Shown here in pieces: positions 17,346-64,000 of a stretch of 64,000 nucleotides of DNA. The translations under genes were made by a program, and so were the position numbers. Numbering within the stretch: position 1 is the stretch's first letter; each line of letters starts with the position of its first letter. The notes under the pieces are model-generated. The model searched no databases. It was given only the letters and a program-made list of their open reading frames with translations, and had not been told where the DNA came from. The stretch comes from Escherichia phage VTCCBPA_322. The stretch lies in the sequence record PP989839.1; one strand, given 5' to 3'.

Positions 17346-17383
17346 TTCCTATATACGATATAAGTTTGAACAGGAAACATGCT

Positions 17384-20300
17384 ATGTCAACATTTGACCG
17401 TCTGGCAGGTTTCGCAGACAGCATCACTAATGCCAAGCAAGTCGATGTCTCTACTGCAACCTCTCAGAAGCAAGCTGCACAAGGGCAAAGCCCTTTCCAA
17501 TTAACCCCAGAGAATGCTTACAATCTCCAAACTGGTCGTGTAGGTAATCTTGGAATCGGTGCATTCGAACCAGGTTCACTTCAGGCAGATTTCACTCAAG
17601 CCTCTCCATTAGAAATTCTTAATAAATACGGTAATGAGCAAGGTCTACAGATTCTTAATAGCCGAGCTAATGCTGCTGATGTTGTACGTCAGGACTTATC
17701 TAAGCAACGTACTAACGCAGAAGCATTTGGTGATACTCTTTCTGGTGTTGGTCTTGGTGTTGCTAATACCCTTGGGGGCATTGCTGCTCTTGGCACAGGT
17801 CTGGTCAATGATAATGCCGGGGCATCCATTGCTTCCGGGATGGATTGGTTGAATGAAGGTGTACACAATCTACAGTCTGATGCACTGAATGCTACCCGTA
17901 AGGTTGTTCAGAATCAGAACCTGATTTCTGCACAAAAGAACCAGAAACTTTATGAAGAAGACATTAAGAATGGGGAGAGCAGTTTGGTTGCCTCCTTGTC
18001 TCGCATTGGTCGTGACGCTTTTGATTCCGTTGCTAATACACTTGATAATGGTATGGCTGCCACCGATGGACTGAGTGAAGGTGTTGGTTCCCTCTTTACT
18101 GGTGGTCCACTTATCCGTGGTGTATCTGCACTTGGTAAAGTAATGGTAGGTGGTGATAAAGCTATTAAAGGTATTACCTTAGCTGCTGAGTTAGGTTCAC
18201 GCCCTGCACAGGTTGCATTGTCTGCTGGTCGTGTTGCTGCACCTGCTATAGCAATTGGTGGTATGGAAGCTGGTGGTGCATACCAACAGACTGCTTCTGA
18301 AATCATGAAGATGTCCCATCAAGAATTAGCAAGTAAGTCTCCTGTTTATCAACAACATATTGCTGATGGTTTATCCCCTGATGAAGCTCGTCGTCAGACT
18401 GCATCTGAAACAGGTATCGTTGCTGCTGGCTTAACTGCTCCGGTTGCTGCTGCTACTGGTCCACTGGTATCCAAATTTGAACTCAACCCCCTTAAAGTAG
18501 GTTCACTGGCTGGTGCTGGCTCTAACATGCTACGTGAGACTGTAGAAGAAGGTATCCAGTCCGGTACTAGTCAGTTTGCACAGAACAAAGCAATTCAGGG
18601 TAATGTAGATGCTAAGCGTGATTTGCTTAAAGGTGTCGGTGAACAAGCAGGTCTTGGTGCACTTTATGGCTTCGGTAGTGCTGGTGTTGCTCAGGCTCCA
18701 GGTGCAACTGTTAAAGCTGTTGGTGCTTCTGCTGGGCCTGCTTTACGTACTACTCTGGCTGGTGCTTCTCTGGTTGGTAGTGCATTAGCAAAAGCTGCCT
18801 CTCCTATTACTAACATCCTGGTTCAACGTGGGGAAGAAGTTGCTAAGCGTAATGAACAAGCATCTCCTGTATCAGACGCTACAGTTAACGCTGCTGCACA
18901 AGAAGCTACTGCTCAGGCAGAACAAGCACAAGCAACTGTACAGGAAGCAGTAGATGCAATGGATATTTCTCCTGAAGAGAAAGCTGCTGCTACTCAGTAT
19001 GCTGCTGACTTAACTCAGGCAATGAAGTTTGACCCAGTAGAGTTAGAGCAAGCTAATCCAGCAATCCGTGAAGCTGTTTCTGGTTCCACTAACCGTGTAG
19101 AAGCTATTCAGAAGATGGCTGACCTGGTTAATACTGCTGAAGACCCTAACGTTCAAATGGAAGCTGCAATCCAGATGTATGACAACATCATGTCTATGGA
19201 TAGCTTCATTAATCGTGACCCGGGTGCTTTGGCTAATCTGGAACAGGGTTCTCCTGCTGCTAATATTGTTGACCAGTTCTCCGGTCTGATGGCTAACGTA
19301 CAGAATACTCCAAAGGTACTTCGTGCATTCCGTGCCATCCATTCTATGATTCAGGAACAGGCTGAAGCAGGTAAGTTAAAAGCTACTGAAGAAGCTAATC
19401 AAGCCCAAGCAAACAACATTGCTATGGCTGCTGATATGTCTCCAGAAGTATTGGATGCAGATTCAGTGAACATGGTTCTGAAACATGCAAGTGAAGGTAA
19501 GATTACACTGGGTAATCGTCAGCGTGCTGCCTTGCAATCTGCTGCTGCTTTATTACAAGGAGCACGGGAATTTGACGCTAAAGCAGAAGAACTGGGCTTA
19601 CGTCCTCAGGACATTGTTAGTAAACAGATTAAAACCGACGAATCTCGTTCTAATGAAGGTCAGTACTCTGCGTTGCAACATGCTAAACGCATTCGTTCTG
19701 CGTACAACTCTGGTAACTTCGATTTGGCTTCCGCTTATCTCGACGACTTTATGAAGTTCGCCCAGCACATGCAGAATAAGGTCGGAGCGTTGAATGAGCA
19801 TCTGATTTCTGGGAATGCGGATAAGAATAAGTCTGTCCATTATCAGGCTCTTACTCCCTCCCGTGAATGGGTACGTAGTCGTACTGGCCTCGGTGTCAAT
19901 CCGTATGATACCAAGTCGGTTAAGTTTGCCCAGCAAGTAGGACTGGAGGCCAAAACCGTAGCTGATATTGCTAATGCACTTGCTACGGCTTACCCGGAGC
20001 TTAATGTTTCTCATGTGAAGGTTACCCCATTAGATTCACGTCTGGACAAGCCTGCTGCCCAGGTGGTTAAAGAGTTCCGTCAGGGCAATCTTGACGCTGC
20101 TCAATCCCAACAGACCAATGAACCAGTGAATCAGGTTGATAAATCTCCTGCACCTGTGCAAGAGGCCACTACTACTGTACAGCCTAAAGCTAAACTAGTG
20201 GTAGAAAATAAGACTGTTCCTGTTAAGGAGACTAGTTCAAAAGCAGAAGAAGTCTCTACTACCGAATCCGAAAGGGATGCTTATGTGAAAGAAAATACTA

Positions 20301-23300
20301 TTTCACAGGACATCCTCAATAAGAGCGGTGATCGTAGAGAGAGTCCTTGGCTCTTTGCTGATGGTACTGTTGTTGGTTCTAACGGCGATCACATTAGCCT
20401 GTCCGATGTATTTGGTCACGATGGCTATCGTGATATGTCTTTGGATACTGGTGCTGTACGTTCTACTTTCTATAAAGGCAGTGAGCAACCATTCGTATCT
20501 TTGCAACTTTTTGATAATCAGAAGCTAACTACTGAACAATTCAATACTGTTCAATCATTCGTAGAAGCAAACAATGCACTGATTCAGATTGGTGTAGATA
20601 CGTCTGGGCGTAACACCAATAACGTTGAGAAGATAGAAGTATCACTGGCCCAACTGAAAGCAGACTATACCGTTGGTGGTAAACCCCTGTCTGAGATGGA
20701 AACAGTGTTCCCTGTCTATAACAATGACAAGACACCGAACCAGTTCCTGAAAGCATTTACCCTGCCGGAAGAACCTAAGTCTCGCACCATTGGTTCTGAA
20801 TCCCCTTTGACTGATGTTAAGCAAGCACTGTCTTCTGCTGCTCGCTTTGAAGCATTCACTCAAAAAGAAAATAACGCTCTCACAAGTGATGTGATTAAGC
20901 GTTATCAGGACTTAATGGACTTTGGTGAAACTCTGAAGACTACTTTGTCTGACCGTCTGACTAAGTTTCTTGCTAATAAGAATGTTGGTAAACGTTTTGC
21001 AGAAGGTACTGAGGCTAACCGTTGGGTAGGTGGTAAGTTACTTAACATCGTAGAGAAAGATGGGGATACCTTTAAGTTCAATGACCAGTTGTTAGAGACT
21101 GCTGTACTTGCTGGTCTGCAATGGCGACTTACTGCTACACAAAATGCTGCTGTTAAAGATATGAAAGACGTAGCTGCTATTACTGGAGTAGAAGCATCCT
21201 TGTTACCTGAAGGTATCCTGGCTGAATTTGAGAATGCTCAGACTCTGGTTGAAGCTACTAACTCACTGGCTCAAAAGATTGAATCTTACTGGGGTCTGAA
21301 TCGTAATCCTAATGCACCTCTGGGTTATACCAAAGGTATCCCAATGGCAATGGCTACAGAGATTCTGTCTTCTTTCATTGAGATGGGTGAAGTTAAAGAA
21401 TCTATGCTGGATGTGTCTGAGTTTGACCCAGCTTCTAATAAGACTGTTGGTCTGTATACTATTGAGAAACTGGATGATAATGATGCCATTAACAAATTCC
21501 CTACTGCTATTGAGGAAGCTGTCCTCGTAGAACCAGAAGAGAAAATGTACTTTGGTGATGATATTCCTTCCGTGGCTCAAACACAGTTACGTAATCCTGC
21601 TGTTAAGAATACCCCAGAGCAGAAAGCTGCTCTTAAAGCAGAACAGGCTACCGAGTTCCGTGTACACATGCCTATGGTTAACTTCTATGAAGCATTAGGT
21701 CGTGACAACATTCTGGAACTGATGGGTGCTGGTACTCTTAATCCTGAACTGCTGAACGTGAATACTGCTAAATCATTGGAAGGTAAAAACCTGTCCGTGT
21801 CCATGGCATATGATTCCTTGTTTGGTGTAATCAATCAATTACAGGAACAGGAGAATGGTCTGGATACGCCTATTCACTATGGTTACAACATGACCCGTGT
21901 AGGTCGTATGCAGATGCTTGGTAAGAACAACCCACAATCCAGCAAGCTGGTTCGTGAAGCAATTCTGCCAACCTTCTCTACTATTGACTTAAGTAATGAA
22001 AATAGCCAAACGTTCTCTGACTTCCAGTTAGGTCTGGCTCAGGCATTGGGCATCAAGGTTCATAATATGTCCCGTGAAGCTATGTCTGAAAAACTGACCA
22101 AAGCTCTGGAAGGTAATTTGAAACCTGCTGTTGATATGATGGTTGAGTTTGATAAGTCCGGTCACTTACCTGCTGATGCAGTAGATATTCTGAAGACATC
22201 TCTGGGTGGTGATAAATCATTCGTAGCTCTTATGGCTCTTATGGAATATGCCCGTTACCTTAACAGTACTGACCGTGCTAACTTTAATACCCCACTGTAC
22301 GTTGAAGCCGATGGTGTAACCAACGGGCCAATCAATGCAATGGTATTAATGACCGGTGGTAAGTTCACTTCGGATTGGATTAAGAATACTGCTAAAGGTG
22401 GTTTGTTCTTCGGTAAAGCTGGTAAGACTATGAACGAACACCGTTCACAGGATGACAGTGTTGACTTGTATGAAGCATCTACTAATGGTCTGCAACAAGC
22501 ACTAAATGAGTTACGTACTACTTACCGTAATAATGTTCCGGTCATGAACCAGATGAATCATCTTCAGAAGTTAATGGACCTGTTCATTAAAGACTTTAAC
22601 CTGAACGAAGACGGTACTTTGGACCTGAAACGTGGTATCGCTAAAAACCCACTGACTATTACCATCTATGGTTCTGGTGCTCGTGGTATTGCTGGCAAGA
22701 TGGTTAGTGCAATTACTGACACCATCTATGAACGCTTCAGTGATGTTCTGCAAGCTCGTGCTGCTGACCCTAGCATTTCCCCAGCTATGGCAATGTTTGG
22801 TAAGGAGGCTGCGTCTGAGGCTAATGCTCAGGCTATGCTGGATACTTTCCTTACATCTATGGAAGCACTGACTGGTAATGTTCCAGTTATGCGTAAAGGT
22901 CAACTGTCTATTCAACAGGTAGAAGGTGCTCTGACTGGTAAGTTAGACCCACAGAAATTTACTGTATCTGGTAATGCCCTGAAGAACTTACAAGAGAACA
23001 TGCTTCACCTGTTCGTTGAACCAATGCGTACTGGTATCCGTAATACTGTTGGTGAAGGTCTTATGCATTCTACTGAGAACTTGCAGAAGGCTACCCAGAT
23101 TCAGTCTTTGGTTCTGCAAGACATGTTCCAACAAGCAGTACAGGCTAAGCTGGCAGAAAAAGAAAAAGACCCAACATGGAAGAAGGGTGATTTCTTAACA
23201 CAGAAAGAACTTAATGAAATCCAGGAATCATTATCTCCACTGGCTCCAATGATTGAGACTGGTTCACAGACTTTCTACATTGCTGGTAGTGAGAATACTG

Positions 23301-26300
23301 ACGTTGCTAACCAAGTTCTGGCTACCAACTTAGATGATCGTATGCGTGTGCCAATGAGCATCTATGCTCCTTCACAGGCAGGCGTTGCAGGTATTCCATT
23401 TATGACCATTGGTACTGGCGATGGCATGATGATGCAGACCCTTTCTACTATGAAAGGTGCTCCGAAGAATACCCTGAAAATCTTTGATGGTATGAACATT
23501 GGTATCGACAACATCACTGATGCAAGTCGTAAAGCTAACGAGGCTGTATACACTTCCTGGCAGGGTAACCCTATCAAGAATGTCTACGACTCCTTCTCTA
23601 AGTTCATGAAGAATGTAGACTTCAGCAAACTGTCTGATGAAACCAAACAGGCTATCGCTAAATCTGCTCTGGAATATGACCAGCGTGAAGGTGCTACCGA
23701 TGACCTGTTACGTGTTGGTGCTGAACAGATTGAACGTAATCTGCGCAACATTGCTCTGGGTGTGGATATTCGCCACAAAGTAATGAACCAGGTACAGACT
23801 ACTGTTGACCAGATGGCTGCTGTAGGTGCTCCTTATGTGAACAACGGTAAAATCTCTCTGGAAGGTCTGACTGTAGACCAGCAAGTAGCTAAGCTGAACG
23901 AACTGTTTGATGCTGAGTTAAACAAGCGTCGTGATGCAGTACGTGCTGCTAAAGCAGAACCAGTGAAAGAAGTACCAGCAATGGAACAGGTTGGTCGTGT
24001 ACTGAAGTCTGGTGTACGTCTGCTGTCTAATACTGCTATCTCTAAGCTGGCTAAAGAGATGTCTCCGGAACAGCAAGCGGTACTGAAAGAAGTACAGAAA
24101 TCCCTTGCTGCTAAAGACTACAAAGTTGTTTATGGTACTCCTGCTCAATTAGATGCTTATGCTATTGAGAAGAATATTACTCGCCCAGCACCAGAAGATA
24201 TTGAAGCTGCTGAAGCAGGTAATGCATACGGCTGGACTAACTTTGATGATAAGACTATCTACTTAGTTACCCCTTCCTTGGAGACTCTGGTTCATGAATT
24301 GGTACATGCTTCTACTTTCGAATCTGTACTGGCTCATTATGAAGGTACTCCAAATGAAGCAGTCCAAAATATTGAAGACTTAATGAATCAGTTCCGTACT
24401 CTGGATGTTAAGGATGAATCTCCGGCAGTACGCGAAGCATATGCAGATGCTCTTAATACCATTAATGGTCATTTGTCTAATGGCTTCATTGAACCAGCAA
24501 TGGCTAAAGCTGCTGCACTTAACGAGTACATGGCATGGGGTTTAACTAACCGTGAACTAATTAGCAAGCAGAAGAAAACTACTGCACTGAAGACTATGGT
24601 TCAGGCTGTGTATGAAGCAATCAAGCGTCTGGTATTCGGACGTAAGAAAGCTCCCGCTAATGCAGATGATATGTTCTCTGGTTTACTATTTAACTCTGCT
24701 GTAGTTATGCGAGGACAAGCTCCTACTGCTGCTGTAGCCAAGGATACTACTCTGTTCCATAACAAAGCATACGGTGACAATACTCGTCTGGAAGAGCTAG
24801 GGAAAACCTTCGATAAACTGATTACAGACTACATTGGTTCAGAACCAGTACAACAAGTAATTCGTAAGGGTAAATTCTCTGATGCAGTAGTGAATGCAAC
24901 TAAAGTAACCCGTGATGTTCAGGCTCATGGCTTCACTATGAATATGCAGGAACAGCGTCTATTCACTAACATCGTTGCTGCTCTGGCTACTGAAGCTGCC
25001 ATTAGTCCTGCTGCCCTGGCTCGTGCACAGGAATACTATACGCATGTTACTAAGAACCTGACCGTTGAATCGTTCATGGCTGACCCGGATAGTACTAACC
25101 CTGCTGACCGTTACTATGCTCAACAGAAGTTCGATACCATTATGGGTGCTAACAATATTGAGTTTGATGCACAGGGCCGTTCTTCCTTACTGCCTACCTT
25201 TGTTGGTCTGGCAATGGTAAGTGAAGAGGTACGTAAAGTACTGGCAGACATTCCTGTTATGAAAGCAGATAAGCAATCCGGTAATACAGTTGATGCAATG
25301 CTGACTAACATTGGTACTGCTGCAATGGCTAGTCTGAATGCTCGTGTAGCGGGTGATACTAAGGCTACCAATGTACAGGAAGGTATGGATGCACTGGCTC
25401 AGACAATCATGCAGACGAGTCTCAATGCACAGTCCTTCTATGATTCCGTTGCTACTCCTAGTGGTAATGCTATTGACCGTGCTAACCAGTATCTGGTGGA
25501 TTCTATTGATGCATTGTCTACCCGTGCTTTAGAAGGTGCTCGTGAAGTTGCAGCTAATACCAAGAACCCGTTGGTTAAAGGTGCTGCTCATGCTGCACAA
25601 CTAATAGCTGCTATTGCTACAGAGAAGAATGGTGAAATCGTAGCTGAAGGCGTTATGGCTGCAATGAACCAGGGTAAAGTGTGGCAACCTTTCCATGACC
25701 TGGTTAATGACTTAACAGGCCGTACTAAGAGCAATGCTTCTGTATACGATTTGATTAAGGCAGTACGTGCACAGGTACAAGCTGACCGTCAACAGTTCCG
25801 TGAACATTTGCCTACCACTATCGCATCTAAGTTCAGCCGTAAGCTGACTAATGATGAATGGAAAGCAATGCATACTGGTATGGGTAAAACTGACTTAGCT
25901 GTTTTACGTGACACTATGTCTCTGGCTGAAATTCGTGACTTGCTGACTGACCAAAAGATTGTTGACCGTGAAGTGAATAAGCTGGAAGCAGACTTACAGA
26001 AACAAGCTGGTCGTAACTGGCCTCTGATTAGCCGTAAATCTAAGCAACTAGCTCAGTACATGATTAACGGTACAGTTGGTAATAACCTGCTGCGTAATGC
26101 TACAGCAATCTCTCGTATGCTGGGTGAACGTCAGGCTGCACGTTCTACTGTAGATGTAGCTCAACTGGATAAACTGATTACTCTGTATGCACTGGAAGCA
26201 ATGAGTAAGACTGACCGTGAGATGTTATCTTCACTGGCTCAATCAGAAGTTGATGGAATTGATTTTGCTACTTCTTACCTGGTTGGTCAGCGTAAAGATG

Positions 26301-28096
26301 AAATGGCTAAAGCCAAGTCTGACATGCGTGCAACCCTGAACCAGTACAAAGGTTATATCCCAAGTGAGACTAAGCAAGGTGTTAACCTGATTGTTGCTGA
26401 AGACAGTCAATTTGCTGATTTGATTGAGAAGTCTTATGTACGTCTGGGTACTTATCAAGGTAGTTCTGCTAATCGTGGTTCAGCACGTAGCTACTACTTC
26501 GCACCGGTACAGGCACAGGCTCCATTCTCACAGGGTATTCTACAGAACGTTCGTAATACTGCTGGTGGTGTAGACCTTGGTACAGGATTTACGATGGGAA
26601 CCATGGTGGCTGGTCGTATTACTGACAAGCCTTCTGTAGACCGTATCACTAAAGCACTGGCTCGTGGTGAACGAGGTAATGAGCCACTGATGCCTGTATA
26701 TGATGACAAAGGTAATGTAGTTGCTTATGAACAATCTATTGACCCTAACATGCTGAAGCACATTGAGGGTGAGAACCATCTTGCTCGTGCAATCGGTGTA
26801 TGGCGTGGTCGTCAGGTGGAAGAAGCTAAGGCTCAGCGTTTCAACGATATGCTAATTGAGAATCTGCATAGCATGTATGAGAACGACATTAAGATGTCTG
26901 CCTCTAATAAGTCCCAGTACGTTAACCTTCTTGGTTCTAAGCTGGACCCAGTAACTGCTGATGCCCTTAAGCTGATGAACAGTGAAACACGTCAGAAAGC
27001 AGAAAGCCTGTTTGGCGAAGGTGAACTGTGGGTTCGTCGTGACATGCTGAATGATGCACTAGGCTATCGTGCAGCTTCCGTTGGTGATGCCTGGTCTGGT
27101 AATTCTCGTTGGTCCCCGGAAACACTGGATACCTTTAAGAAAGCTATGCTTGGTGTGTTCGGCAACCGTGCCTACAAGTATGTAATGGGTGGTGAGAACC
27201 TGGTTCAGAACTTAGTTAAAGAAGCTAAGACTCTGATTGTAGTTAAATCAGTGGTTGTACCTGCTGTTAACTTCCTGGCTAACCTTTACCAGATGGTTGG
27301 TCGTGGTGTACCCGTTAAGAACATTGCTAAAAGCATTCCACAGAAGACTGCTGAGATTAACCAGTACCTGAAATCTCGTCTGCGTCAGGTAGACGCAGAA
27401 GCAGAATTACGTGCAGCCACTAACCCGAACCAGATTCGTAAACTTAAGGCTGAGATTCAGTCTATTACTGACAGCCATAAGCGTATGAGTATCTGGCCTC
27501 TGTTAGAAGCTGGTGAGTTCTCTTCAATTGCAGATGCTGGTATTGGGCGTGATGATATCCTGATTACTGAGGGTAAACTCCATGAATACATGGATAAACT
27601 GGCTGATAAGTTACCTAAGTCTGTACGCAACGCTGGACGTTATGCACTTATCACCAAAGATACTGCTCTCTTCCAGGGTATCCAGAAGACGGTTGAGTAC
27701 TCTGACTTTATCGCTAAAGCAATCATCTATGATGATTTGACTCAGCGTAAAGGTAAGACTCGTGAAGAAGCACTAGGACGTGTAACGGAGGAGTTCATTA
27801 ACTATGACCGTTTGCCTGGTCGCTTCCGTGGGTATATGGAAAGTGTTGGTTTAATGTGGTTCTACAACTTTAAGATTCGTTCTGCGAAAATTGCAGTATC
27901 CATGATTCGTAACAACCCGGTACATGCAGCTATGGCTATGTTGGCTCCAACTCCTACCATGTTTGGTAACGTTGGTTTACCTATTCAGGACAACATCTTC
28001 AGTATTGCTGCACAAGGTAATCTTGGTTACTCCTGGGGCTTCGGTCAGGGCTTACGTGCCCATAACCTTAACCCTTGGCTCAACCTCACTAACTAA
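17384..28096 (+). CDS. virion-encapsidated giant RNA polymerase (N4 gp50-like vRNAP)
   Basis: 3570-aa ORF (ATG 17384 with AGGAAA RBS; track start 17366 is TTG); central region has T7-like polymerase motifs: DG near PLYVEADGVTNGPINA, motif B-like KNPLTITIYGSGARG, motif C-like KIFDGMNIG; hallmark of N4-like phages. Confidence 0.9.
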   Translation: MSTFDRLAGFADSITNAKQVDVSTATSQKQAAQGQSPFQLTPENAYNLQTGRVGNLGIGAFEPGSLQADFTQASPLEILNKYGNEQGLQILNSRANAADVVRQDLSKQRTNAEAFGDTLSGVGLGVANTLGGIAALGTGLVNDNAGASIASGMDWLNEGVHNLQSDALNATRKVVQNQNLISAQKNQKLYEEDIKNGESSLVASLSRIGRDAFDSVANTLDNGMAATDGLSEGVGSLFTGGPLIRGVSALGKVMVGGDKAIKGITLAAELGSRPAQVALSAGRVAAPAIAIGGMEAGGAYQQTASEIMKMSHQELASKSPVYQQHIADGLSPDEARRQTASETGIVAAGLTAPVAAATGPLVSKFELNPLKVGSLAGAGSNMLRETVEEGIQSGTSQFAQNKAIQGNVDAKRDLLKGVGEQAGLGALYGFGSAGVAQAPGATVKAVGASAGPALRTTLAGASLVGSALAKAASPITNILVQRGEEVAKRNEQASPVSDATVNAAAQEATAQAEQAQATVQEAVDAMDISPEEKAAATQYAADLTQAMKFDPVELEQANPAIREAVSGSTNRVEAIQKMADLVNTAEDPNVQMEAAIQMYDNIMSMDSFINRDPGALANLEQGSPAANIVDQFSGLMANVQNTPKVLRAFRAIHSMIQEQAEAGKLKATEEANQAQANNIAMAADMSPEVLDADSVNMVLKHASEGKITLGNRQRAALQSAAALLQGAREFDAKAEELGLRPQDIVSKQIKTDESRSNEGQYSALQHAKRIRSAYNSGNFDLASAYLDDFMKFAQHMQNKVGALNEHLISGNADKNKSVHYQALTPSREWVRSRTGLGVNPYDTKSVKFAQQVGLEAKTVADIANALATAYPELNVSHVKVTPLDSRLDKPAAQVVKEFRQGNLDAAQSQQTNEPVNQVDKSPAPVQEATTTVQPKAKLVVENKTVPVKETSSKAEEVSTTESERDAYVKENTISQDILNKSGDRRESPWLFADGTVVGSNGDHISLSDVFGHDGYRDMSLDTGAVRSTFYKGSEQPFVSLQLFDNQKLTTEQFNTVQSFVEANNALIQIGVDTSGRNTNNVEKIEVSLAQLKADYTVGGKPLSEMETVFPVYNNDKTPNQFLKAFTLPEEPKSRTIGSESPLTDVKQALSSAARFEAFTQKENNALTSDVIKRYQDLMDFGETLKTTLSDRLTKFLANKNVGKRFAEGTEANRWVGGKLLNIVEKDGDTFKFNDQLLETAVLAGLQWRLTATQNAAVKDMKDVAAITGVEASLLPEGILAEFENAQTLVEATNSLAQKIESYWGLNRNPNAPLGYTKGIPMAMATEILSSFIEMGEVKESMLDVSEFDPASNKTVGLYTIEKLDDNDAINKFPTAIEEAVLVEPEEKMYFGDDIPSVAQTQLRNPAVKNTPEQKAALKAEQATEFRVHMPMVNFYEALGRDNILELMGAGTLNPELLNVNTAKSLEGKNLSVSMAYDSLFGVINQLQEQENGLDTPIHYGYNMTRVGRMQMLGKNNPQSSKLVREAILPTFSTIDLSNENSQTFSDFQLGLAQALGIKVHNMSREAMSEKLTKALEGNLKPAVDMMVEFDKSGHLPADAVDILKTSLGGDKSFVALMALMEYARYLNSTDRANFNTPLYVEADGVTNGPINAMVLMTGGKFTSDWIKNTAKGGLFFGKAGKTMNEHRSQDDSVDLYEASTNGLQQALNELRTTYRNNVPVMNQMNHLQKLMDLFIKDFNLNEDGTLDLKRGIAKNPLTITIYGSGARGIAGKMVSAITDTIYERFSDVLQARAADPSISPAMAMFGKEAASEANAQAMLDTFLTSMEALTGNVPVMRKGQLSIQQVEGALTGKLDPQKFTVSGNALKNLQENMLHLFVEPMRTGIRNTVGEGLMHSTENLQKATQIQSLVLQDMFQQAVQAKLAEKEKDPTWKKGDFLTQKELNEIQESLSPLAPMIETGSQTFYIAGSENTDVANQVLATNLDDRMRVPMSIYAPSQAGVAGIPFMTIGTGDGMMMQTLSTMKGAPKNTLKIFDGMNIGIDNITDASRKANEAVYTSWQGNPIKNVYDSFSKFMKNVDFSKLSDETKQAIAKSALEYDQREGATDDLLRVGAEQIERNLRNIALGVDIRHKVMNQVQTTVDQMAAVGAPYVNNGKISLEGLTVDQQVAKLNELFDAELNKRRDAVRAAKAEPVKEVPAMEQVGRVLKSGVRLLSNTAISKLAKEMSPEQQAVLKEVQKSLAAKDYKVVYGTPAQLDAYAIEKNITRPAPEDIEAAEAGNAYGWTNFDDKTIYLVTPSLETLVHELVHASTFESVLAHYEGTPNEAVQNIEDLMNQFRTLDVKDESPAVREAYADALNTINGHLSNGFIEPAMAKAAALNEYMAWGLTNRELISKQKKTTALKTMVQAVYEAIKRLVFGRKKAPANADDMFSGLLFNSAVVMRGQAPTAAVAKDTTLFHNKAYGDNTRLEELGKTFDKLITDYIGSEPVQQVIRKGKFSDAVVNATKVTRDVQAHGFTMNMQEQRLFTNIVAALATEAAISPAALARAQEYYTHVTKNLTVESFMADPDSTNPADRYYAQQKFDTIMGANNIEFDAQGRSSLLPTFVGLAMVSEEVRKVLADIPVMKADKQSGNTVDAMLTNIGTAAMASLNARVAGDTKATNVQEGMDALAQTIMQTSLNAQSFYDSVATPSGNAIDRANQYLVDSIDALSTRALEGAREVAANTKNPLVKGAAHAAQLIAAIATEKNGEIVAEGVMAAMNQGKVWQPFHDLVNDLTGRTKSNASVYDLIKAVRAQVQADRQQFREHLPTTIASKFSRKLTNDEWKAMHTGMGKTDLAVLRDTMSLAEIRDLLTDQKIVDREVNKLEADLQKQAGRNWPLISRKSKQLAQYMINGTVGNNLLRNATAISRMLGERQAARSTVDVAQLDKLITLYALEAMSKTDREMLSSLAQSEVDGIDFATSYLVGQRKDEMAKAKSDMRATLNQYKGYIPSETKQGVNLIVAEDSQFADLIEKSYVRLGTYQGSSANRGSARSYYFAPVQAQAPFSQGILQNVRNTAGGVDLGTGFTMGTMVAGRITDKPSVDRITKALARGERGNEPLMPVYDDKGNVVAYEQSIDPNMLKHIEGENHLARAIGVWRGRQVEEAKAQRFNDMLIENLHSMYENDIKMSASNKSQYVNLLGSKLDPVTADALKLMNSETRQKAESLFGEGELWVRRDMLNDALGYRAASVGDAWSGNSRWSPETLDTFKKAMLGVFGNRAYKYVMGGENLVQNLVKEAKTLIVVKSVVVPAVNFLANLYQMVGRGVPVKNIAKSIPQKTAEINQYLKSRLRQVDAEAELRAATNPNQIRKLKAEIQSITDSHKRMSIWPLLEAGEFSSIADAGIGRDDILITEGKLHEYMDKLADKLPKSVRNAGRYALITKDTALFQGIQKTVEYSDFIAKAIIYDDLTQRKGKTREEALGRVTEEFINYDRLPGRFRGYMESVGLMWFYNFKIRSAKIAVSMIRNNPVHAAMAMLAPTPTMFGNVGLPIQDNIFSIAAQGNLGYSWGFGQGLRAHNLNPWLNLTN

Positions 28097-54797: not shown

Positions 54798-54821
54798 TTC
54801 CTGGCTCCAGGATGTTTAAGT

Positions 54822-54853: not shown

Positions 54854-54902
54854 AACTTGAGGGTTTCATTTCAGGGTTTATAACCCCAAACAAAGGATAC
54901 CC

Positions 54903-55736: not shown

Positions 55737-55783
55737 ATGAATTTCCTCATAAGTAAATAGCAGGATTAGTATACATGACATGT

Positions 55784-55813
55784 AAAAAAATAAACCCTCC
55801 GTTAAGAGGGTTA
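55784..55813 (-). terminator. intrinsic terminator
   Basis: minus strand AACCCTC-loop-GAGGGTT followed by TATTTTTTTAC. Confidence 0.65.
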
Positions 55814-56008
55814 GTTGTTTACACAGTAGATAGCAAAAGCTATCCATCCTGCCATTACAAAGCATCCTAGTGAATATGCCCCATAGTAGCAGTAAGCAAA
55901 CTTAGACTTGTGAGCACGAACTATCGTAGCCAGAACCAGTACAGATAAAACTATCAGTATCAGCTGAAAGATTACTTCAAAATTGATAAGCATAGTTGCT
56001 ACCTCCAA
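55811..56008 (-). CDS. small membrane protein
   Basis: 65 aa, two hydrophobic helices. Confidence 0.45.
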   Translation of the reverse strand: MEVATMLINFEVIFQLILIVLSVLVLATIVRAHKSKFAYCYYGAYSLGCFVMAGWIAFAIYCVNN

Positions 56009-56009
56009 G

Positions 56010-56046
56010 CAAAAAATAAAGCCCCACTCCCGAAGGAATGAGGCTA
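56010..56046 (-). terminator. intrinsic terminator after RNAPII operon
   Basis: imperfect hairpin AGCCTCATTCC-TTCG-GGAGTGGGGCT followed by TTTATTTTTTG. Confidence 0.5.
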
Positions 56047-56051
56047 GTTTA

Positions 56052-57269
56052 TTAACTTAATGCATAATCTGTTTCAAGGATGTCCTGCCAGAGGCTGTCA
56101 TCCAGCTTACCAGCAGAGAACTCTTGTCCCAGTACCTGAGACAGGATGAAGCCCAGTAGGTCACTCTTCGCAATGTCAGACAGAATCTGATTGTACTGAC
56201 GACGCAAGTCATTACCGTAGTTAGGATGGCAACGGAAGCAGTCATGTACAGTCATTACAGGGAATGGTTTCTTAGGCATGGTATTGAGCATAGTCATGAT
56301 TACATCTGTATCAACCAATGCAATCGTTTCTGAGTCCAGATAGTCAAAGATACGAGTAGACAGGAAGCCCGACTTCTCATAGCTGGTCCACAGTGTATTA
56401 ACCATTTCATAGTTATCATCAGAGCCTACCATGTAGTCACTGGTTCCCTCACAAAGGGACTTAACATAATTCACCTGGTTCATGTCGAAGTTGCAACGAC
56501 GCAGCATCTCACGTACCACCATTCCATCAATAGAGTGAGTGATGTTAGCAGAGAGCATACGGGTCTTCTCTTCAGTACCCTGAACCATACGAGTGATATC
56601 GAAGGGTTTACCTAAGAAGTTAATAGTCTGTACTTCTTGAACCATGACCTTAATGACAGCATGGAAGTTGTCAGGCAATACCCATATGTAACGGTTAGCA
56701 TCCGGGTTACCACATTGCAGTAAGAACTTGTTAAGTGCCCAAGGACCACTTGCAACTGTTTCCATTACATTCTCAAAAGTCTTGAGACGAATACCTTCAC
56801 CGAATACTTCTTTAGGCTTGGCTTCTGAACCGTAGAATGCGGTCATAACTGCCTGCTTGGTATCACTACGTTTAATACGAGATGCTTCACCAAGGATGTC
56901 CAGCATCTTGTGATAGATAACTGTATAAGCATCACGACGTAATGGCTTACCATTCTCACCCATGTAGTTAACTACGTTACATAGTTCAGCAGCAGAACGG
57001 TCACCAGTCAGGCAGGCCAGTAACTGCAAGCCGGATGATGTAGCATCCAGAGCTACGGCATAACCGATAGGCTTACCTGCTTTCATATCTTTCCATGCGT
57101 TTATACCAGCATAGAACAGTGCAGATTCTTCAGCTTCATCTACCAGATTAAGCAGGTTAGCTTCGTTCTCATCGAACCAGGCAATACGTTCATCCCAGGT
57201 CTTTTTATCCAGACCATAGTTATTGGCAATATCTACTTTCAGGTATTCTTTAGCAGTTAACAGTTGCAT
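56052..57269 (-). CDS. phage RNA polymerase II, catalytic (large) subunit, T7-like (N4 gp16-like)
   Basis: 405 aa; T7 RNAP motif A-like GYAVALDATSSGLQ and motif C-like VMTVHDCFRC. Confidence 0.8.
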   Translation of the reverse strand: MQLLTAKEYLKVDIANNYGLDKKTWDERIAWFDENEANLLNLVDEAEESALFYAGINAWKDMKAGKPIGYAVALDATSSGLQLLACLTGDRSAAELCNVVNYMGENGKPLRRDAYTVIYHKMLDILGEASRIKRSDTKQAVMTAFYGSEAKPKEVFGEGIRLKTFENVMETVASGPWALNKFLLQCGNPDANRYIWVLPDNFHAVIKVMVQEVQTINFLGKPFDITRMVQGTEEKTRMLSANITHSIDGMVVREMLRRCNFDMNQVNYVKSLCEGTSDYMVGSDDNYEMVNTLWTSYEKSGFLSTRIFDYLDSETIALVDTDVIMTMLNTMPKKPFPVMTVHDCFRCHPNYGNDLRRQYNQILSDIAKSDLLGFILSQVLGQEFSAGKLDDSLWQDILETDYALS

Positions 57270-57326
57270 TTTATGTTCCTTTTGCTTCTTGGCTCTCCAC
57301 TATGGGGAGCCTGCTTATTGGATGGA

Positions 57327-57566
57327 TTAGCCAGCATTAAATGATGACAATACTATTCCTGGTTCCACACCTTCTGTGGCAATACCCAGGTACTCGACAT
57401 GTACTTTATCTGGGGAAGAACACCAAGCGGAGTATGTACTCCATTCTCCGTCTGGGCTAATAAGACGAGCCTCTTCTGCGGTTTTAGCTGCTACCACAGC
57501 AGAATCATATGTATCCCAATCCGTATTTTCTTCTTGGCTAATAAGCCATAGTTTTAATCTACTCAT
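57327..57566 (-). CDS. small hypothetical protein
   Basis: 79 aa between the two RNAPII subunit genes. Confidence 0.4.
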   Translation of the reverse strand: MSRLKLWLISQEENTDWDTYDSAVVAAKTAEEARLISPDGEWSTYSAWCSSPDKVHVEYLGIATEGVEPGIVLSSFNAG

Positions 57567-58377
57567 CGTTTACTAACTCCTTATCAGCGAACTCCAGTAC
57601 AGCTTTGTTGTAACTGGTTCCCTGATAGTTAATGTGATAGCCCTGAGCATAAGTACGCCCACGTTTGTCATATTTGTGACCCAGTGAGAAGTTATTACCC
57701 TCTTTGGTCACTAACTCCATTACTTCCTTAGCGGTACGGCTGTACTTCTCAAAGGCTTTAACACGTTTCTCGTATTCCTGTCGGGTTTCACCCTCTTTGG
57801 GCTTATCCATATTAGGGCGAGAGTCTTTTACATAATTAGCAACATCCCAGTTGATACTTAGACGTTGATTATTCATACGGTTAATATGGTCAAGACAGAC
57901 ATCCATCTCATGATGGTTCTTCTTGAGGATGATACTGCCCCTGCTCTCGTAGTAACCTGTATCACGGTTACACAGAACAGGCTTAGGAGCACTTACGATA
58001 GGTAATGGATACTGGAATGCTTCCAGTTCCATCTGAACATCTTCACTAATCTCATAGATAACACCGAACTTGTCGATGGTAGGGTCATAGTTGAAGCAGT
58101 CATTCTCTGCCATCTTATACAGACAGTCAGCGATGTACTGAGCGTCATCTGAGTGGCTCATGAGAGAGCCAATCATAGTCTGGATGTCGGCTCGTTTATG
58201 TAGGGCAATCTGCACCATTGCATCAATGAGCAGCTTATAATCAATTTCCAAATAGGCAGCGAATGCCCTAAAGTCAATTTCTTCGGAGTCCTCAAATTCC
58301 TTCCTCATGCGAGGGAGTAATTGATTTTTGTTGAAAAGAATTTCGAGTTGCTTCTGATGTTCAATAGATGAGTACAT
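57559..58377 (-). CDS. phage RNA polymerase II, small subunit (N4 gp15-like)
   Basis: 272 aa immediately upstream of catalytic subunit gene; assignment by synteny and size. Confidence 0.6.
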   Translation of the reverse strand: MYSSIEHQKQLEILFNKNQLLPRMRKEFEDSEEIDFRAFAAYLEIDYKLLIDAMVQIALHKRADIQTMIGSLMSHSDDAQYIADCLYKMAENDCFNYDPTIDKFGVIYEISEDVQMELEAFQYPLPIVSAPKPVLCNRDTGYYESRGSIILKKNHHEMDVCLDHINRMNNQRLSINWDVANYVKDSRPNMDKPKEGETRQEYEKRVKAFEKYSRTAKEVMELVTKEGNNFSLGHKYDKRGRTYAQGYHINYQGTSYNKAVLEFADKELVNDE

Positions 58378-58397
58378 CGCATATTCTCCTAACTAAT

Positions 58398-58631
58398 TTA
58401 AATAATACTTGCTATTAGAGTCCTGGTTTTATGCTCACTAGCACATCGGTAATACATTCTTATGTGGTTTCCATGGAAGTTATGTCTCCATGCCCACGGG
58501 AAGGATAATTCTACTTCACACCAGTTATTAGGGCTTTCATATGCCCCTTTAACTGCTTCTTTAATCTTTGGGTAATTACCCCATTTATGCTTATGTTTCT
58601 TAGCTATGATCTGCTGAATTGATACTGACAT
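58398..58631 (-). CDS. small hypothetical protein
   Basis: ATG at 58631 with AAGGA RBS; directly downstream of conserved hairpin motif. Confidence 0.45.
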   Translation of the reverse strand: MSVSIQQIIAKKHKHKWGNYPKIKEAVKGAYESPNNWCEVELSFPWAWRHNFHGNHIRMYYRCASEHKTRTLIASII

Positions 58632-58637
58632 TTCATA

Positions 58638-58659
58638 TCCTTAAGCTGCGGAGCAGCTT
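58638..58659 (-). promoter_or_regulatory. conserved hairpin motif TCCTTAA-GCT-GCGGAGC-AGC; candidate virion-RNAP early promoter upstream of RNAPII operon
   Basis: 7-bp stem AAGCTGC/GCAGCTT with 3-nt purine loop GGA on plus (template) strand; shares core with sites at 63123 and 63897. Confidence 0.45.
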
Positions 58660-59009
58660 TAACTCCAGTAGTTGTAAGCATCGCCTAAATGTTTACGCCA
58701 TGCTTCGGGTAACAGTACATTACCTGTTACATTAATGAACTGGTATGGGTCCAGGTAGTCATTACTCATGACTTTGAAATTCCACTGTGGATTAGAGGAG
58801 GCATAGGCAATGAAGCCTTCAATGAAGCCATAAATAGCACCCTCTTTGATACGGTTACCATTGCCATCTCTTACTGGAATAGCAAAGCTATTACCATAAT
58901 GACCATAGGCCATACCCCAGCGAGCACCATGTTTTTTATAAGCTAATTTGGCAGAAGCATTAGTATGCTGTCCAAGTGTATTAGTAGTGAATACGAAGAT
59001 TTCTTTCAT
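58659..59009 (-). CDS. hypothetical protein
   Basis: 116 aa. Confidence 0.5.
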   Translation of the reverse strand: MKEIFVFTTNTLGQHTNASAKLAYKKHGARWGMAYGHYGNSFAIPVRDGNGNRIKEGAIYGFIEGFIAYASSNPQWNFKVMSNDYLDPYQFINVTGNVLLPEAWRKHLGDAYNYWS

Positions 59010-59215
59010 TTGAGTAGTTTCCTTAAGCCTTTATAGGCTTCTTGGGAAGTCATGTTAAATTCGGGACGACCTGCAATATAAAGGTCTAATTCTTTTAGAG
59101 CCAACTCATGGTCATGCTGTTCCTTCTTGGTTCTACAATGACCACACTTGCCATCCCATTGGGATACATGACCTTTACCACATTTGCATTGTTTACCCAT
59201 TAGGATTCTCCACAA
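59006..59215 (-). CDS. small zinc-ribbon protein
   Basis: CKCGKG...CGHC four-Cys pattern. Confidence 0.45.
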   Translation of the reverse strand: MWRILMGKQCKCGKGHVSQWDGKCGHCRTKKEQHDHELALKELDLYIAGRPEFNMTSQEAYKGLRKLLK

Positions 59216-59573
59216 AGTAGTTATACATAGCTTTTACTAGCTTCTCTTTAATAACCTCACCATGACATGGTTTCGGATAACAGAAGCACTGTAAGGTCAG
59301 CCCTTTCTCGTCAATGGCTTTATTACCAAGACGATTAAGTTCATCCAGTACAACTGGATTCTTTCTCATGATTTGTTCATGAAGCCATGCTCGATATTTG
59401 GCTATAACCTGTTCTCTTGAACCGTCTTTACCAATAACGAATGGATTGCCTAATGGTGAGCCACGCCCGATATACTCTCCGGATTTACCATGATGTTTAT
59501 TAACAATGATAATTGGACGTGCATATACACCAAGCAAAGCATTAGTGTCATCACCTAATGTAATAGTCTTCAT
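59193..59573 (-). CDS. DUF4326-like protein
   Basis: motifs GRGSPLGNPF, AKYRAWL, LQCFCYPKPCHG. Confidence 0.45.
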   Translation of the reverse strand: MKTITLGDDTNALLGVYARPIIIVNKHHGKSGEYIGRGSPLGNPFVIGKDGSREQVIAKYRAWLHEQIMRKNPVVLDELNRLGNKAIDEKGLTLQCFCYPKPCHGEVIKEKLVKAMYNYFVENPNG

Positions 59574-59576
59574 TTT

Positions 59577-59801
59577 TTATTTACCTTGAATTACTAAGTG
59601 AGATTCATATAGGTCAACCTTTGCAGAACTTACTACAGGAATTATTTCATCTGTCTTGCTAATACGCATAGCAGAGCAACCAACTTTCATCCATAAGTAG
59701 GTATCAGAATCTTCATTCAGGAAACGAAATACATCACCATTTGATAAGTCTTTAAATTGAAGTACAGGTAAGGGCTTCTTCTTAATTACTTCTACTTTCA
59801 T
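59577..59801 (-). CDS. small hypothetical protein
   Basis: 74 aa. Confidence 0.45.
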   Translation of the reverse strand: MKVEVIKKKPLPVLQFKDLSNGDVFRFLNEDSDTYLWMKVGCSAMRISKTDEIIPVVSSAKVDLYESHLVIQGK

Positions 59802-59802
59802 A

Positions 59803-60126
59803 TTACTGACCTTTGGGGTTAAGTACCTGGAAAGCGAACACAGGGCGTTTACTACGCCACTGGTTCATAGCTAGTTCACTGGTTTCAGAACCATCATGTA
59901 AGTCATAAATAAATGAGATTACATAGTCTGGTTCTTCTGGGAAATTCTCTGTAGAGAATGGTAAACCTGATTCCTTAAGAATAGGAACCAGTGGAGATTC
60001 TGCATTGCAGTAGAGGGTAAACTCTTCATTGAATGCCTGGCTTGTTTGAGATACATAATCAATATTACGCATCATTTTATCTACATCTGTAAATGTAGAA
60101 TCATGAACTACTAGAATAGTTTTCAT
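59803..60126 (-). CDS. hypothetical protein
   Basis: 107 aa. Confidence 0.45.
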   Translation of the reverse strand: MKTILVVHDSTFTDVDKMMRNIDYVSQTSQAFNEEFTLYCNAESPLVPILKESGLPFSTENFPEEPDYVISFIYDLHDGSETSELAMNQWRSKRPVFAFQVLNPKGQ

Positions 60127-60377
60127 ACCTTTCTTAATGTCCCATAAATGTTATTATCGACAATACTCAAATCACAAAAACCAATCTCTTCTTGTCTCCC
60201 AGAGGATACCCAGATATTGTTTTCTGTTAGCTTAGGCTTCTTAGAGAAGCCTATTAAGGAGGTATTAGCACTCTTATATTGTCGAGTATATAGAGCTATA
60301 TACTTAACCCAGTGAGGCACTTGGATAGTATGTCCCATATATTCCACAGTCTTACCTGTAGGGTATGTAATAATCAT
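60123..60377 (-). CDS. small hypothetical protein
   Basis: 84 aa; ATGA overlap. Confidence 0.45.
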   Translation of the reverse strand: MIITYPTGKTVEYMGHTIQVPHWVKYIALYTRQYKSANTSLIGFSKKPKLTENNIWVSSGRQEEIGFCDLSIVDNNIYGTLRKV

Positions 60378-60686
60378 TTAGTACCTCACAATATATACAG
60401 GTTTATTAAGCTTATTCATGATATCAATCATGTGCTTGGTTCCTTTGGAATTACCATCCCAGAAGCATACAGCAGCATCTGCAAATTCACCCATTTCCTG
60501 GTTACGTATATAACCAGCACGTTTACCTAGTCTGACCCAGTCAGCAGGAAATTTATTTATTACCATTCCTGTTCCACCCCAAAGGTTATATGCTGTAAGG
60601 TCTGCTCCATAAGCCATACCACATACTAATTCTGGACATTCAGGTATATTTCCTGAATTTACTAACTTCTGTAGTTCAGCAATCAT
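60378..60686 (-). CDS. SLOG-family (DUF2493-like) Rossmann-fold protein
   Basis: motifs GMAYGADLTAYNLW, RNQEM, CFWDGNSKGTKHMI. Confidence 0.45.
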   Translation of the reverse strand: MIAELQKLVNSGNIPECPELVCGMAYGADLTAYNLWGGTGMVINKFPADWVRLGKRAGYIRNQEMGEFADAAVCFWDGNSKGTKHMIDIMNKLNKPVYIVRY

Positions 60687-60724
60687 AAGATTAGTGTCAG
60701 TGAAGTCACGTCCACCAGCTACAA

Positions 60725-60952
60725 TCAGTTTCGTTTTTGATATCCTTGCATATAGTTAATACGGCGAATACGTTGAGTAGATGCCTTAACAGCCATCTGT
60801 TGATTTTCTTGTTTATGCTGATTAGTCAGTATCTTATCCCATTCTTTCTGGTTCCTTTGTTTCTGTAATATACGACTACAACGCTTATGATTGGCAACTC
60901 CACGTCCTTTTTTACAGACTGGGCAAATACCATAATCGTTTGAGTACATCAT
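60725..60952 (-). CDS. small zinc-ribbon protein
   Basis: CPVCKK...HKRC pattern. Confidence 0.4.
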   Translation of the reverse strand: MMYSNDYGICPVCKKGRGVANHKRCSRILQKQRNQKEWDKILTNQHKQENQQMAVKASTQRIRRINYMQGYQKRN

Positions 60953-61257
60953 TGGCTTAAAGCCTCCATTAATATTTTACGAATAACGTTAACATCAGAT
61001 TCAGTACCAATTAAACCAACAGGTTTACCTGTACTATCTGTTACAAAACCAGCAATCCTTTCCATTTCTGCTGTAATTAGTTTGTCACCACTAATAAGAC
61101 GATTACGAAGGTAAGCCTCATAAGCTACCTCTATATCTTCTACTGTGGTTCTTTCATTACGAGCGAATGGATTACTTAATGGGAAGGGTAAATGTACCCG
61201 TATATTCCTGTCAGCTACTTTAGCTTGGTGAGGAAGTATACATACTATTTCATTCAA
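60949..61257 (-). CDS. hypothetical protein, possible DUF4326-like paralogue
   Basis: 102 aa; LSNPFARNERTTVEDIEVAYEAYL resembles N-terminal motif of 59193-59573 product. Confidence 0.45.
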   Translation of the reverse strand: MNEIVCILPHQAKVADRNIRVHLPFPLSNPFARNERTTVEDIEVAYEAYLRNRLISGDKLITAEMERIAGFVTDSTGKPVGLIGTESDVNVIRKILMEALSQ

Positions 61258-61298
61258 GGTTATTTCTCCTATTTAAATACATATCTAACTATTCAAGA

Positions 61299-61332
61299 AT
61301 AAAAAATAGGAGCCTCCTAATGGAGGACTCCT
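61299..61332 (-). terminator. intrinsic terminator
   Basis: minus strand AGGAGTCCTCC-ATTA-GGAGGCTCCT followed by ATTTTTTATTCTT. Confidence 0.65.
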
Positions 61333-61334
61333 TA

Positions 61335-61523
61335 TTATTTAATACACGGATGATTGAAAGTTACGATGATATCGTCTTTAATCTTCATATTAGTAACTGG
61401 ATTGAGTTGACCAGGTGCACCAACATAAGCAACAGTGTCGTTACCCTTACTTAATGCTGACTTATTACGTTTACGCATACGAACAACATCTTCTTTGGTT
61501 CCCATGATTAATGACTTACGCAT
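61335..61523 (-). CDS. small basic hypothetical protein
   Basis: ATG at 61523 with GGAG RBS (track start 61568 lacks RBS). Confidence 0.4.
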   Translation of the reverse strand: MRKSLIMGTKEDVVRMRKRNKSALSKGNDTVAYVGAPGQLNPVTNMKIKDDIIVTFNHPCIK

Positions 61524-61890
61524 GTTTAGTACTCCACATAAAGTTAAAAGGTTTATTGTTACGTACAATTCTTACAACCATTTGATAGCCATTGAGCTGC
61601 ACAACACCATAGTGTCGTTTCTGTACACCAGTGTGATATCTACGAAAGATACATTCTTCAATGGCATCTTCTATGTTAGTGAATATCACTGGTTCTCCCG
61701 TAATATCGACAACTAAGCACAGGTGAATAACGTTTACACATCGCCACCTGGCTCATCTCTGCCACGAGCATTACTTGCTACGGAAGTGAACATACCAATA
61801 ACTATGCCTACTGCTAATAACCACGGGAATGCAGCTACCAGCAGTATCATTAATAAAGTACACAGAATCTCTGCCAGCAGCTTCATAGCA

Positions 61891-62295
61891 TTATCCTTCC
61901 AGTTGTTTAGGCAACATTGCCATTAGTTGTTTAGCCATAGACTCACACTCATCGGTGCAATATTGCTCATCTCGCCATACACCCTCTGAGTACATGTGCA
62001 AGCCTTCCAACGGAGTACCCTTGTACTTCTCTGGGCATTTCATGAGGTCACCATAATGAGCACAATCAAAACCAATAACAATTTTGTCCTCTAATTGAGG
62101 AAGTGCATCCTGATAAGTAACACCACCATGAACTGAGATGCATACTTCTGAGTCATAATTCATGAAGTCTTTGTCTACTAAGTCAGCAGGTAATGCTACG
62201 TAACCACAATGGTGAGAACCATCATTCACTAACAGGATTACAGCAGGTAAGACAGCTTCAGTAGTCCAGCTTTTTACGATTTTATGAGTAGTCAT
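61891..62295 (-). CDS. hypothetical protein
   Basis: 134 aa; conserved-looking His/Cys positions (SHHCGY, GFDCAH). Confidence 0.5.
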   Translation of the reverse strand: MTTHKIVKSWTTEAVLPAVILLVNDGSHHCGYVALPADLVDKDFMNYDSEVCISVHGGVTYQDALPQLEDKIVIGFDCAHYGDLMKCPEKYKGTPLEGLHMYSEGVWRDEQYCTDECESMAKQLMAMLPKQLEG

Positions 62296-62296
62296 C

Positions 62297-62488
62297 TTAT
62301 TTATTTCCTTTGTGAAGTTTACGGATTTGTTTACGAGTAGGTTTAGCTACAAAGAAGTGGTCATAATGCTGACCATTCTTGTCTTCTACAGATACCTGCC
62401 AACGAGCATTAAGTGACATCTTGCCACCATAACACTGTACCATCTTAATCAGCTTCTGAGAGTTATAACGGTTACATACTGTACGCAT
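62297..62488 (-). CDS. small hypothetical protein
   Basis: 63 aa. Confidence 0.4.
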   Translation of the reverse strand: MRTVCNRYNSQKLIKMVQCYGGKMSLNARWQVSVEDKNGQHYDHFFVAKPTRKQIRKLHKGNK

Positions 62489-63122: not shown

Positions 63123-63144
63123 TCCATAAGACGCGGAGCGTCTT
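63123..63144 (-). promoter_or_regulatory. conserved hairpin motif TCCATAA-GAC-GCGGAGC-GTC; candidate virion-RNAP early promoter
   Basis: 7-bp stem AAGACGC/GCGTCTT with GGA loop on plus strand; same core as 58638 and 63897. Confidence 0.45.
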
Positions 63145-63896: not shown

Positions 63897-63916
63897 TCCA
63901 TAACATGCGGAGCATG
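63897..63916 (-). promoter_or_regulatory. conserved hairpin motif TCCATAA-CAT-GCGGAGC-ATG; candidate virion-RNAP early promoter for leftmost early gene
   Basis: 5-bp stem CATGC/GCATG with GGA loop on plus strand, about 40 nt upstream of start codon at 63860. Confidence 0.45.
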
Positions 63917-64000
63917 TGTAACGTGTAAGGTGGGGTAGGGTAGTGGCTACACCGTCAACATACCGGGGGGCTAGTTGAGTGTAAGGGTGTAGCCCCAGCC

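Follow-up and report, generated by a model that had tools for sequence, protein, structure and literature searches.

A candidate template-strand hairpin promoter of the N4 virion RNA polymerase type upstream of the RNAPII operon of Escherichia phage VTCCBPA_322

Early promoters of phage N4 and its described relatives

The closest described systems are the early promoters of phage N4, which are used by its virion RNA polymerase (vRNAP) and are conserved from -17 to +1, with a GC-rich heptamer centred on -11 and inverted repeats on its flanks (PMC4496689). For these promoters it has been reported that the enzyme recognises -11A/G, -10G, -8G and +1C, that the G:C pair closing the loop as well as the loop's 5' G and its 3' A must be present for extrusion and stability, and that transcription starts 8 nt downstream of -8, the mapping of the start sites being the work of the Rothman-Denes laboratory (review: PMC4496689). 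The so-called "mini-hairpin" class GCGNAGC, of which the core GCGGAGC studied here is a member, represents extraordinarily stable DNA, and promoters with a GGA loop are bound by mini-vRNAP with a KD of ~2 nM (PMC13037366). The N4 consensus used in this study was derived from two sources, the left end of the N4 genome (EF056009) and the 2015 review (PMC4496689). On the N4 template strand, GCG(G/A)AGC is found within an inverted repeat at three places of the left genome end (Table 1), and these sites, located upstream of gp1, gp2 and gp15, were taken as P1, P2 and P3, an assignment which fits the published description.

For the Klebsiella phage KP8, four promoters (P1-P4) have been predicted, one of them before the RNAPII small-subunit gene (PMC6950046, Table 1). 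Their motif type is shared by the window, i.e., the whole 64,000-nt stretch of Escherichia phage VTCCBPA_322 (PP989839.1) analysed here, which differs in featuring three sites instead of four. KP8 P2 (AAGACGCTCCGCGTCTTATGGA) is identical to the P2 equivalent of the window, and KP8 P4 (AAGCAGCTCCGCTGCTTGTGGG), the one before the RNAPII small subunit, has its middle stem base swapped, A:T for T:A. Experimental mapping by ONT-cappable-seq is available for the early hairpin promoters of LUZ7, a Pseudomonas relative of N4 (PMC9163698). LUZ7 shares with the window the template-strand hairpins, the 3-nt loop, the injected vRNAP and, as predicted for the window, G as first RNA base; it is, however, a more distant relative with another sequence motif and nine early starts, its stems being at least 4 bp long and its starts lying 13-14 nt away from the centre of the hairpin. 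For LUZ7, LIT1 and PEV2, all of them Pseudomonas relatives, similar sites have been predicted, and the searchable literature yielded no transcript mapping for any Gamaleyavirus. The element described in the following is already known as a type, namely the classical N4 early promoter, and is unannotated in the relative studied here. Likewise, no promoter is annotated in the three Gamaleyavirus records inspected (G7C, SP5M and 24-32N), and none of the terminators annotated in SP5M coincides with the hairpin.

The hairpin and its two sister sites in the window

The window originates from a Gamaleyavirus (Enquatrovirinae, Schitoviridae), a G7C-like relative of N4, and its positions 56000-60000 show ~89-93% identity to G7C-like coliphages, matching the annotated genes of RNAP1 and RNAP2. 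Every ORF of the hairpin region is located on the minus strand, and the plus strand is consequently the template strand. The hairpin occupies a 27-nt gap between the upstream ORF (58659-59009) and the 77-aa ORF downstream, whose ATG lies at 58631, and the stem ends on 58659, the base with which the TAA stop codon of the upstream ORF also ends. On the plus strand, 58638-58659 reads TCCTTAAGCTGCGGAGCAGCTT and comprises a 7-bp stem with a 3-nt loop, AAGCTGC-GGA-GCAGCTT, which spans -3 to -19 in N4 numbering and combines an obligatory inner part of 5 bp (58645-58649 with 58653-57) with two optional outer A:T pairs. In a 51-nt context, this hairpin is both the minimum-energy and the centroid structure predicted for the single-stranded DNA (-7.6 kcal/mol, z = -2.79, equalled by 0 of 200 shuffles). 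The letters of the plus strand and the predicted fold thus confirm the 7-bp hairpin with a GGA loop of 3 nt that had been proposed in the initial annotation, which requires correction in small details: TCCTT (58638-58642), there included in the sequence said to form the hairpin, is the initiation region outside of the stem, and the motif does lie just upstream of the first ORF of the operon, but at a distance of 6 nt instead of 7 nt.

Table 1. Positions of the hairpin, its neighbouring genes and sister sites in the window, and of the corresponding sites in N4 (N4 positions refer to EF056009).
Feature	Position	Strand	Remarks
Template-strand promoter hairpin (candidate)	58643..58659	+	AAGCTGC (58643-58649) / GCAGCTT (58653-58659), loop GGA (58650-58652)
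GC-rich heptamer GCGGAGC ("mini-hairpin" core)	58648..58654	+	centre -11G (58651)
Initiation region TCCTTAA (predicted)	58638..58644	+	-1 to -4 = TTAA, spacer ("ruler")
gp14 homologue, upstream ORF	58659..59009	-	46% identity to N4 gp14; stop overlaps hairpin
77-aa accessory ORF, first downstream of the candidate promoter	58398..58631	-	absent from N4 and G7C
RNAPII small subunit (gp15/RNAP1 homologue)	57559..58377	-	66% identity to N4
RNAPII large subunit (gp16/RNAP2 homologue)	56052..57269	-	69% identity to N4
Terminator-like hairpin and T-run, directly after RNAP2	56020..56045	-	from terminator scan
P2-equivalent candidate promoter	63123..63144	+	TCCATAAGACGCGGAGCGTCTT; predicted +1 C63125, 11 nt before gp2 homologue
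P1-equivalent candidate promoter	63897..63917	+	TCCATAACATGCGGAGCATGT; predicted +1 C63899, 39 nt before gp1 homologue
Virion RNA polymerase gene	17366..28096	+	3576-aa ORF, matches N4 vRNAP structures
N4 site upstream of gp1	93-99	template	TCCATAAGTTGCGAAGCAAC
N4 site upstream of gp2	562-568	template	TCCAAAAGAAGCGGAGCTTCTT
N4 site between gp14 and gp15	4551-4557	template	ACCAAAAGCTGCGGAGCAGCTT

All published determinants of N4 vRNAP promoters are found at this locus, including +1C (C58640), -8G (G58648), the pair -9C (C58649):-13G (G58653), -10G (G58650), -11G (G58651) and -12A (A58652). The heptamer GCG(G/A)AGC is centred on -11 with a purine-rich loop on the template strand, the genes being encoded on the minus strand, and the hairpin is located within the first-injected left ~10% of the genome, at a distance of ~5.4 kb from that end of the window which, in the alignment, coincides to within a few nt with the left N4 genome end. 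An alignment to N4 P1-P3, as suggested in the initial annotation, revealed identity at 17/17 positions to the N4 hairpin upstream of gp15, which occupies the equal syntenic place (gp14/gp15). Like the element in the window, N4 P3 features the 17-nt hairpin AAGCTGCGGAGCAGCTT on the template strand with +1C in equal register, is located between the gp14 and gp15 homologues, ~4.6-5.4 kb into the genome as counted from its left end, and has a polymerase of the same family with conserved contact residues. It differs at -1 to -4 (AAAA versus TTAA in the window) and at +3 (A versus T), and in its 38-nt leader to gp15, whereas a 9-nt leader to the inserted 77-aa accessory ORF is predicted in the window. 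The structurally characterised N4 P2 (binary complex with mini-vRNAP, PDB 3C3L) likewise has a 7-bp stem, a GGA loop and TCC at +3 to +1, and its very short leader, which begins with GGAUGA, lies before gp2, an architecture like that predicted for the window; its variable stem is GAA/TTC in contrast to GCT/AGC, and the downstream gene is a different one.

Searching the 64-kb window for TCCWWAANNNGCGRAGC with at most one mismatch gave three copies versus 0.07 expected, a number reached by 0 of 100 shuffles. The copies of the extended motif TCCWWAA-N3-GCGRAGC start at 58638, 63123 and 63897, and all three are located on the plus (template) strand, are intergenic and are followed by the complement of N3. 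They lie directly upstream of the homologues of gp1 (67% identity, after the copy at 63897), gp2 (68% identity, after the copy at 63123) and the RNAPII operon, an arrangement that matches P1, P2 and P3 of N4. Hairpins with a 3-nt loop and a stem of 5 bp or more number 99 in the window, and seven of these have 7-bp stems; this architecture is not rare per se, and the hairpin at 58643-58659 is distinguished by its sequence motif, strand, position and conservation. For the heptamer GCGGAGC alone, no significant enrichment was seen (four found versus 2.1 expected), and its fourth copy, at 49831, was rejected as a promoter because it is intragenic and lacks a stem. A relaxed scan of both strands, in which any G-N-A loop on a stem of 4 bp or more was accepted, returned 50 sites, and -9C, -8G and +1C were all present in only 3/50, namely the three sites named above. 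Requiring a stem of 5 bp or more together with the G-N-A loop, -9C, -8G and +1C likewise leaves only these three sites in the 64 kb.

With regard to other signals in the early region (54800-64000), terminator-like hairpins are enriched (25 found versus 5.6), and sigma-70-like matches are depleted (9 versus 25.7 +/- 5.0 in shuffles). Strong terminator-like hairpins with T-runs on the minus strand at 56020-56045 (after RNAP2) and 62602-62623 (after the gp2 homologue) are likely the ends of early transcription units, the former likely marking the end of the operon. The P2-equivalent hairpin (63127-63145, plus strand) is followed by GTTTTTAAGA on the template strand and was scored as terminator-like for antisense transcription, which is probably incidental.

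Conservation in relatives and the cognate polymerase

The comparison with relatives was based on 14 IMG/VR contigs encoding RNAP1 at 72-97% identity, which were chosen independently of the hairpin. In 14/14 contigs, GCGRAGC occurs exactly once per ~5.4-6.8-kb locus, both strands counted, and in every locus it lies upstream of RNAP1 on the template strand, as part of a hairpin with at least three further complementary pairs. Absence of the motif from related genomes, which had been named in the initial annotation as an outcome that would speak against its proposal, is thus not what was observed in these 14 contigs. The variable stem differs among the relatives in a compensatory manner (GCT/AGC, GGT/ACC, GCA/TGC). 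This was further assessed in an alignment of 17 sites, comprising the three sites of the window, the three N4 sites and 11 orthologues. Here, the inner five pairs are paired in 17/17 sites, and both sides of the pairs -5:-17, -6:-16 and -7:-15 vary without ever being unpaired; the covariation score of 0.347 compares with 0.058 in shuffles, none of 500 shuffles attained it, and sliding the register led to a collapse in every case. The CC at +1/+2, which lies outside of the stem, and the AA at -3/-4 are invariant among these sites. The stems of N4-type promoters comprise 5-7 bp, in line with the two outer A:T pairs being optional among the 17 sites. In the intergenic alignment, the hairpin forms an invariant island, while the flanks are wholly different among genomes.

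Exact matches to TCCATAA-N3-GCGGAGC were found 97 times in IMG/VR, and N3 is followed by its complement in 22 of them versus ~1.5 expected; the other 75 form no hairpin. Tracing was achieved for 19 of the 22 complementary matches, which belong to 15 contigs, 12 of ~70-77 kb and three shorter ones (2.9, 23 and 35 kb), several of the 12 long contigs being also among the RNAP1-bearing loci of the 14-contig set. A scan of IMG/VR with the exact 17-mer of the P3 hairpin returned only six contigs, including N4 and pSb-1, and is too strict to be informative. In more distant relatives with an RNAP1 identity of at most 54% (L018-L023), no GCGRAGC hairpin was found upstream of RNAP1; the motif is therefore subfamily-specific and not unchanged across all N4-like phages. 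One of these contigs (L020) harbours another 7-bp hairpin, CGAGCTC-tgc-GAGCTCG, 35 nt upstream.

The vRNAP encoded in the window shares 67% identity with that of N4 overall and 70% in the mini-vRNAP domain, which corresponds to residues ~1092-2197 of the ORF. Using an offset of +997 for the mini-vRNAP numbering, which was verified by the presence of the named residue at each N4 position, eight of the nine promoter-contact residues are identical (K114, R119, W129, K268, K849, K850, D901 and R904), and their local context is identical or near-identical. The ninth, K267 in N4, is N in the window. In the N4 enzyme, K267 is a residue of the beta-intercalating hairpin and helps to melt the two basal pairs of the 7-bp stem. 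The five residues described as readers of the bases -11G, -10G, -9C and -8G (PMC4496689) are all kept, and an unchanged promoter specificity is consequently expected. The listed vRNAP ORF begins at TTG, ~6 codons upstream of the residue aligned to N4 Met1. Altogether, the identity to N4, the presence of the determinants, the covarying conservation and the cognate polymerase support the proposal, already made in the initial annotation, of an N4-type template-strand hairpin promoter of vRNAP.

Predicted transcription, alternative explanations and implications

Based on these data, the hairpin very probably represents the counterpart of N4 P3, i.e., an early promoter of vRNAP. According to the N4 register, the predicted +1 is C58640, and the minus-strand RNA would read 5'-GGAUAUGAA-AUG, with 5'-GGAUAUGAAAUG as its 5' end. 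From work on N4 (PMC4496689), we infer that the promoter would be active and would depend on host gyrase and SSB: negative supercoiling by gyrase would lead to extrusion of the inverted repeat, E. coli SSB would melt the hairpin on the non-template strand, and the unusually stable GCGGAGC mini-hairpin on the template strand would persist. The injected vRNAP could then bind the template hairpin via -11G, -10G and -8G and start RNA synthesis at +1C, 8 nt downstream of -8. Initiation at a promoter of this type would be rifampicin-resistant and set in right after infection. A transcript starting at C58640 would comprise the 77-aa ORF, RNAP1, a 79-aa ORF and RNAP2 and run to the terminator-like hairpin at 56045-56020, and such a P3-type transcript would enable production of RNAPII, the polymerase of the middle genes. 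A start at 58640 would cut the AAGGA Shine-Dalgarno sequence short by its first two bases, and GGA alone would remain at the very 5' end of the 9-nt leader, which looks odd. Short leaders are also given by the equal register for N4 P2 (10 nt before gp2, GGAUGAAGUA) and for the P2 equivalent of the window (11 nt).

An alternative, though improbable, explanation would be that the palindrome acts as RNA (AAGCUGC-UCC-GCAGCUU) on mRNA reading through from the early genes upstream, e.g., as a terminator, processing site or stability element in the gap that separates the gp14 homologue from the RNAPII operon. DNA palindromes fold in RNA too, and the hairpin is indeed present in both the minimum-energy and the centroid structure of the RNA; the regional RNA fold is, however, not better than that of shuffles (z = -0.22). 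Other terminator-like sites were not found between the gp14 homologue and the hairpin, and in N4 and relatives without the extra ORF (L005, L008) the non-template hairpin is followed by TTTTGGT, which would make it terminator-like on a read-through RNA. In the window, by contrast, the hairpin is followed by AAGGAUAUG without a U-tract, so that the combination of a GC-rich RNA hairpin and a U-tract typical of an intrinsic terminator is lacking, and the terminator scan finds nothing there on the minus strand. Furthermore, an RNA hairpin leaves unexplained the invariant loop G-G/A-A of the template strand, -8G and the invariant CC at +1/+2 outside of the stem, and an RNA role leaves unexplained why the motif is also present before gp1 at the genome end, a place that no transcript reaches from upstream. 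At the position of TTTTGGT in N4 and the relatives without the extra ORF, the window has TTAAGGA, and a second role of the promoter as partial terminator is conceivable in some genomes, though not in the phage studied here.

Very improbable is the use of the region as a promoter by the host sigma-70 RNAP or, as a middle promoter, by the phage RNAPII, with the hairpin being incidental. Its intergenic place directly upstream of the operon is in favour of such a use, yet a search of 58300-59100 for sigma-70-like sites (-35/-10 hexamers with 16-18-nt spacing) was negative, and the early region as a whole has fewer of them than expected (9 versus 25.7). Middle promoters of N4 RNAPII are characterised by AT-rich consensus motifs on the template strand and a start at T. 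The RNAPII of N4 prefers to start with thymidine and reads two sequence motifs instead of a hairpin, a description which is unlike a GC-rich hairpin with +1C (PMC9163698). Moreover, transcription of its own genes by RNAPII from the onset of infection would be circular. Finally, a chance palindrome without function would agree with the frequency of similar hairpins in the window and with the lack of significant enrichment of the bare heptamer, but has a negligible probability and can be regarded as refuted by the conservation data, given the extended motif found three times versus 0.07 expected, the covarying stem, the invariance of the hairpin between mosaic flanks and its identity to the N4 hairpin upstream of gp15.

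Apart from its predicted function as the counterpart of N4 P3, the hairpin could tentatively be viewed as a module boundary at which cassettes of accessory ORFs are exchanged by recombination, although we rate this idea as rather unlikely. Mosaicism is seen on either side of the invariant hairpin, with every one of the four possible pairings between upstream and downstream variants represented, which gives the locus the appearance of such a boundary. The 77-aa ORF was found in only six phage records and has no match in Pfam or PHROGs (the other early proteins tested had no Pfam match), and its place between P3 and RNAP1 is taken in other relatives by a different small ORF or by none. For T4-like phages, promoter-early stem-loops have been proposed as mediators of gene shuffling. 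If a boundary of this kind exists, new small genes, here the 77-aa ORF, would land directly under the earliest promoter, and the mRNA of the 77-aa ORF would occur in two forms, i.e., a P3-initiated one with the 5'-terminal GGA only and a read-through one with the full AAGGA.

Annotation of the three vRNAP promoters and of the predicted start would improve Gamaleyavirus records, with little consequence beyond annotation, and marking the promoters would define early transcription units for the engineering of such phages. Inside the subfamily, the promoter motif is usable as a precise search pattern. In terms of the biology of these phages, the comparison suggests that promoter specificity is essentially fixed between the N4 and G7C genera, although their polymerases are only 67% identical overall.
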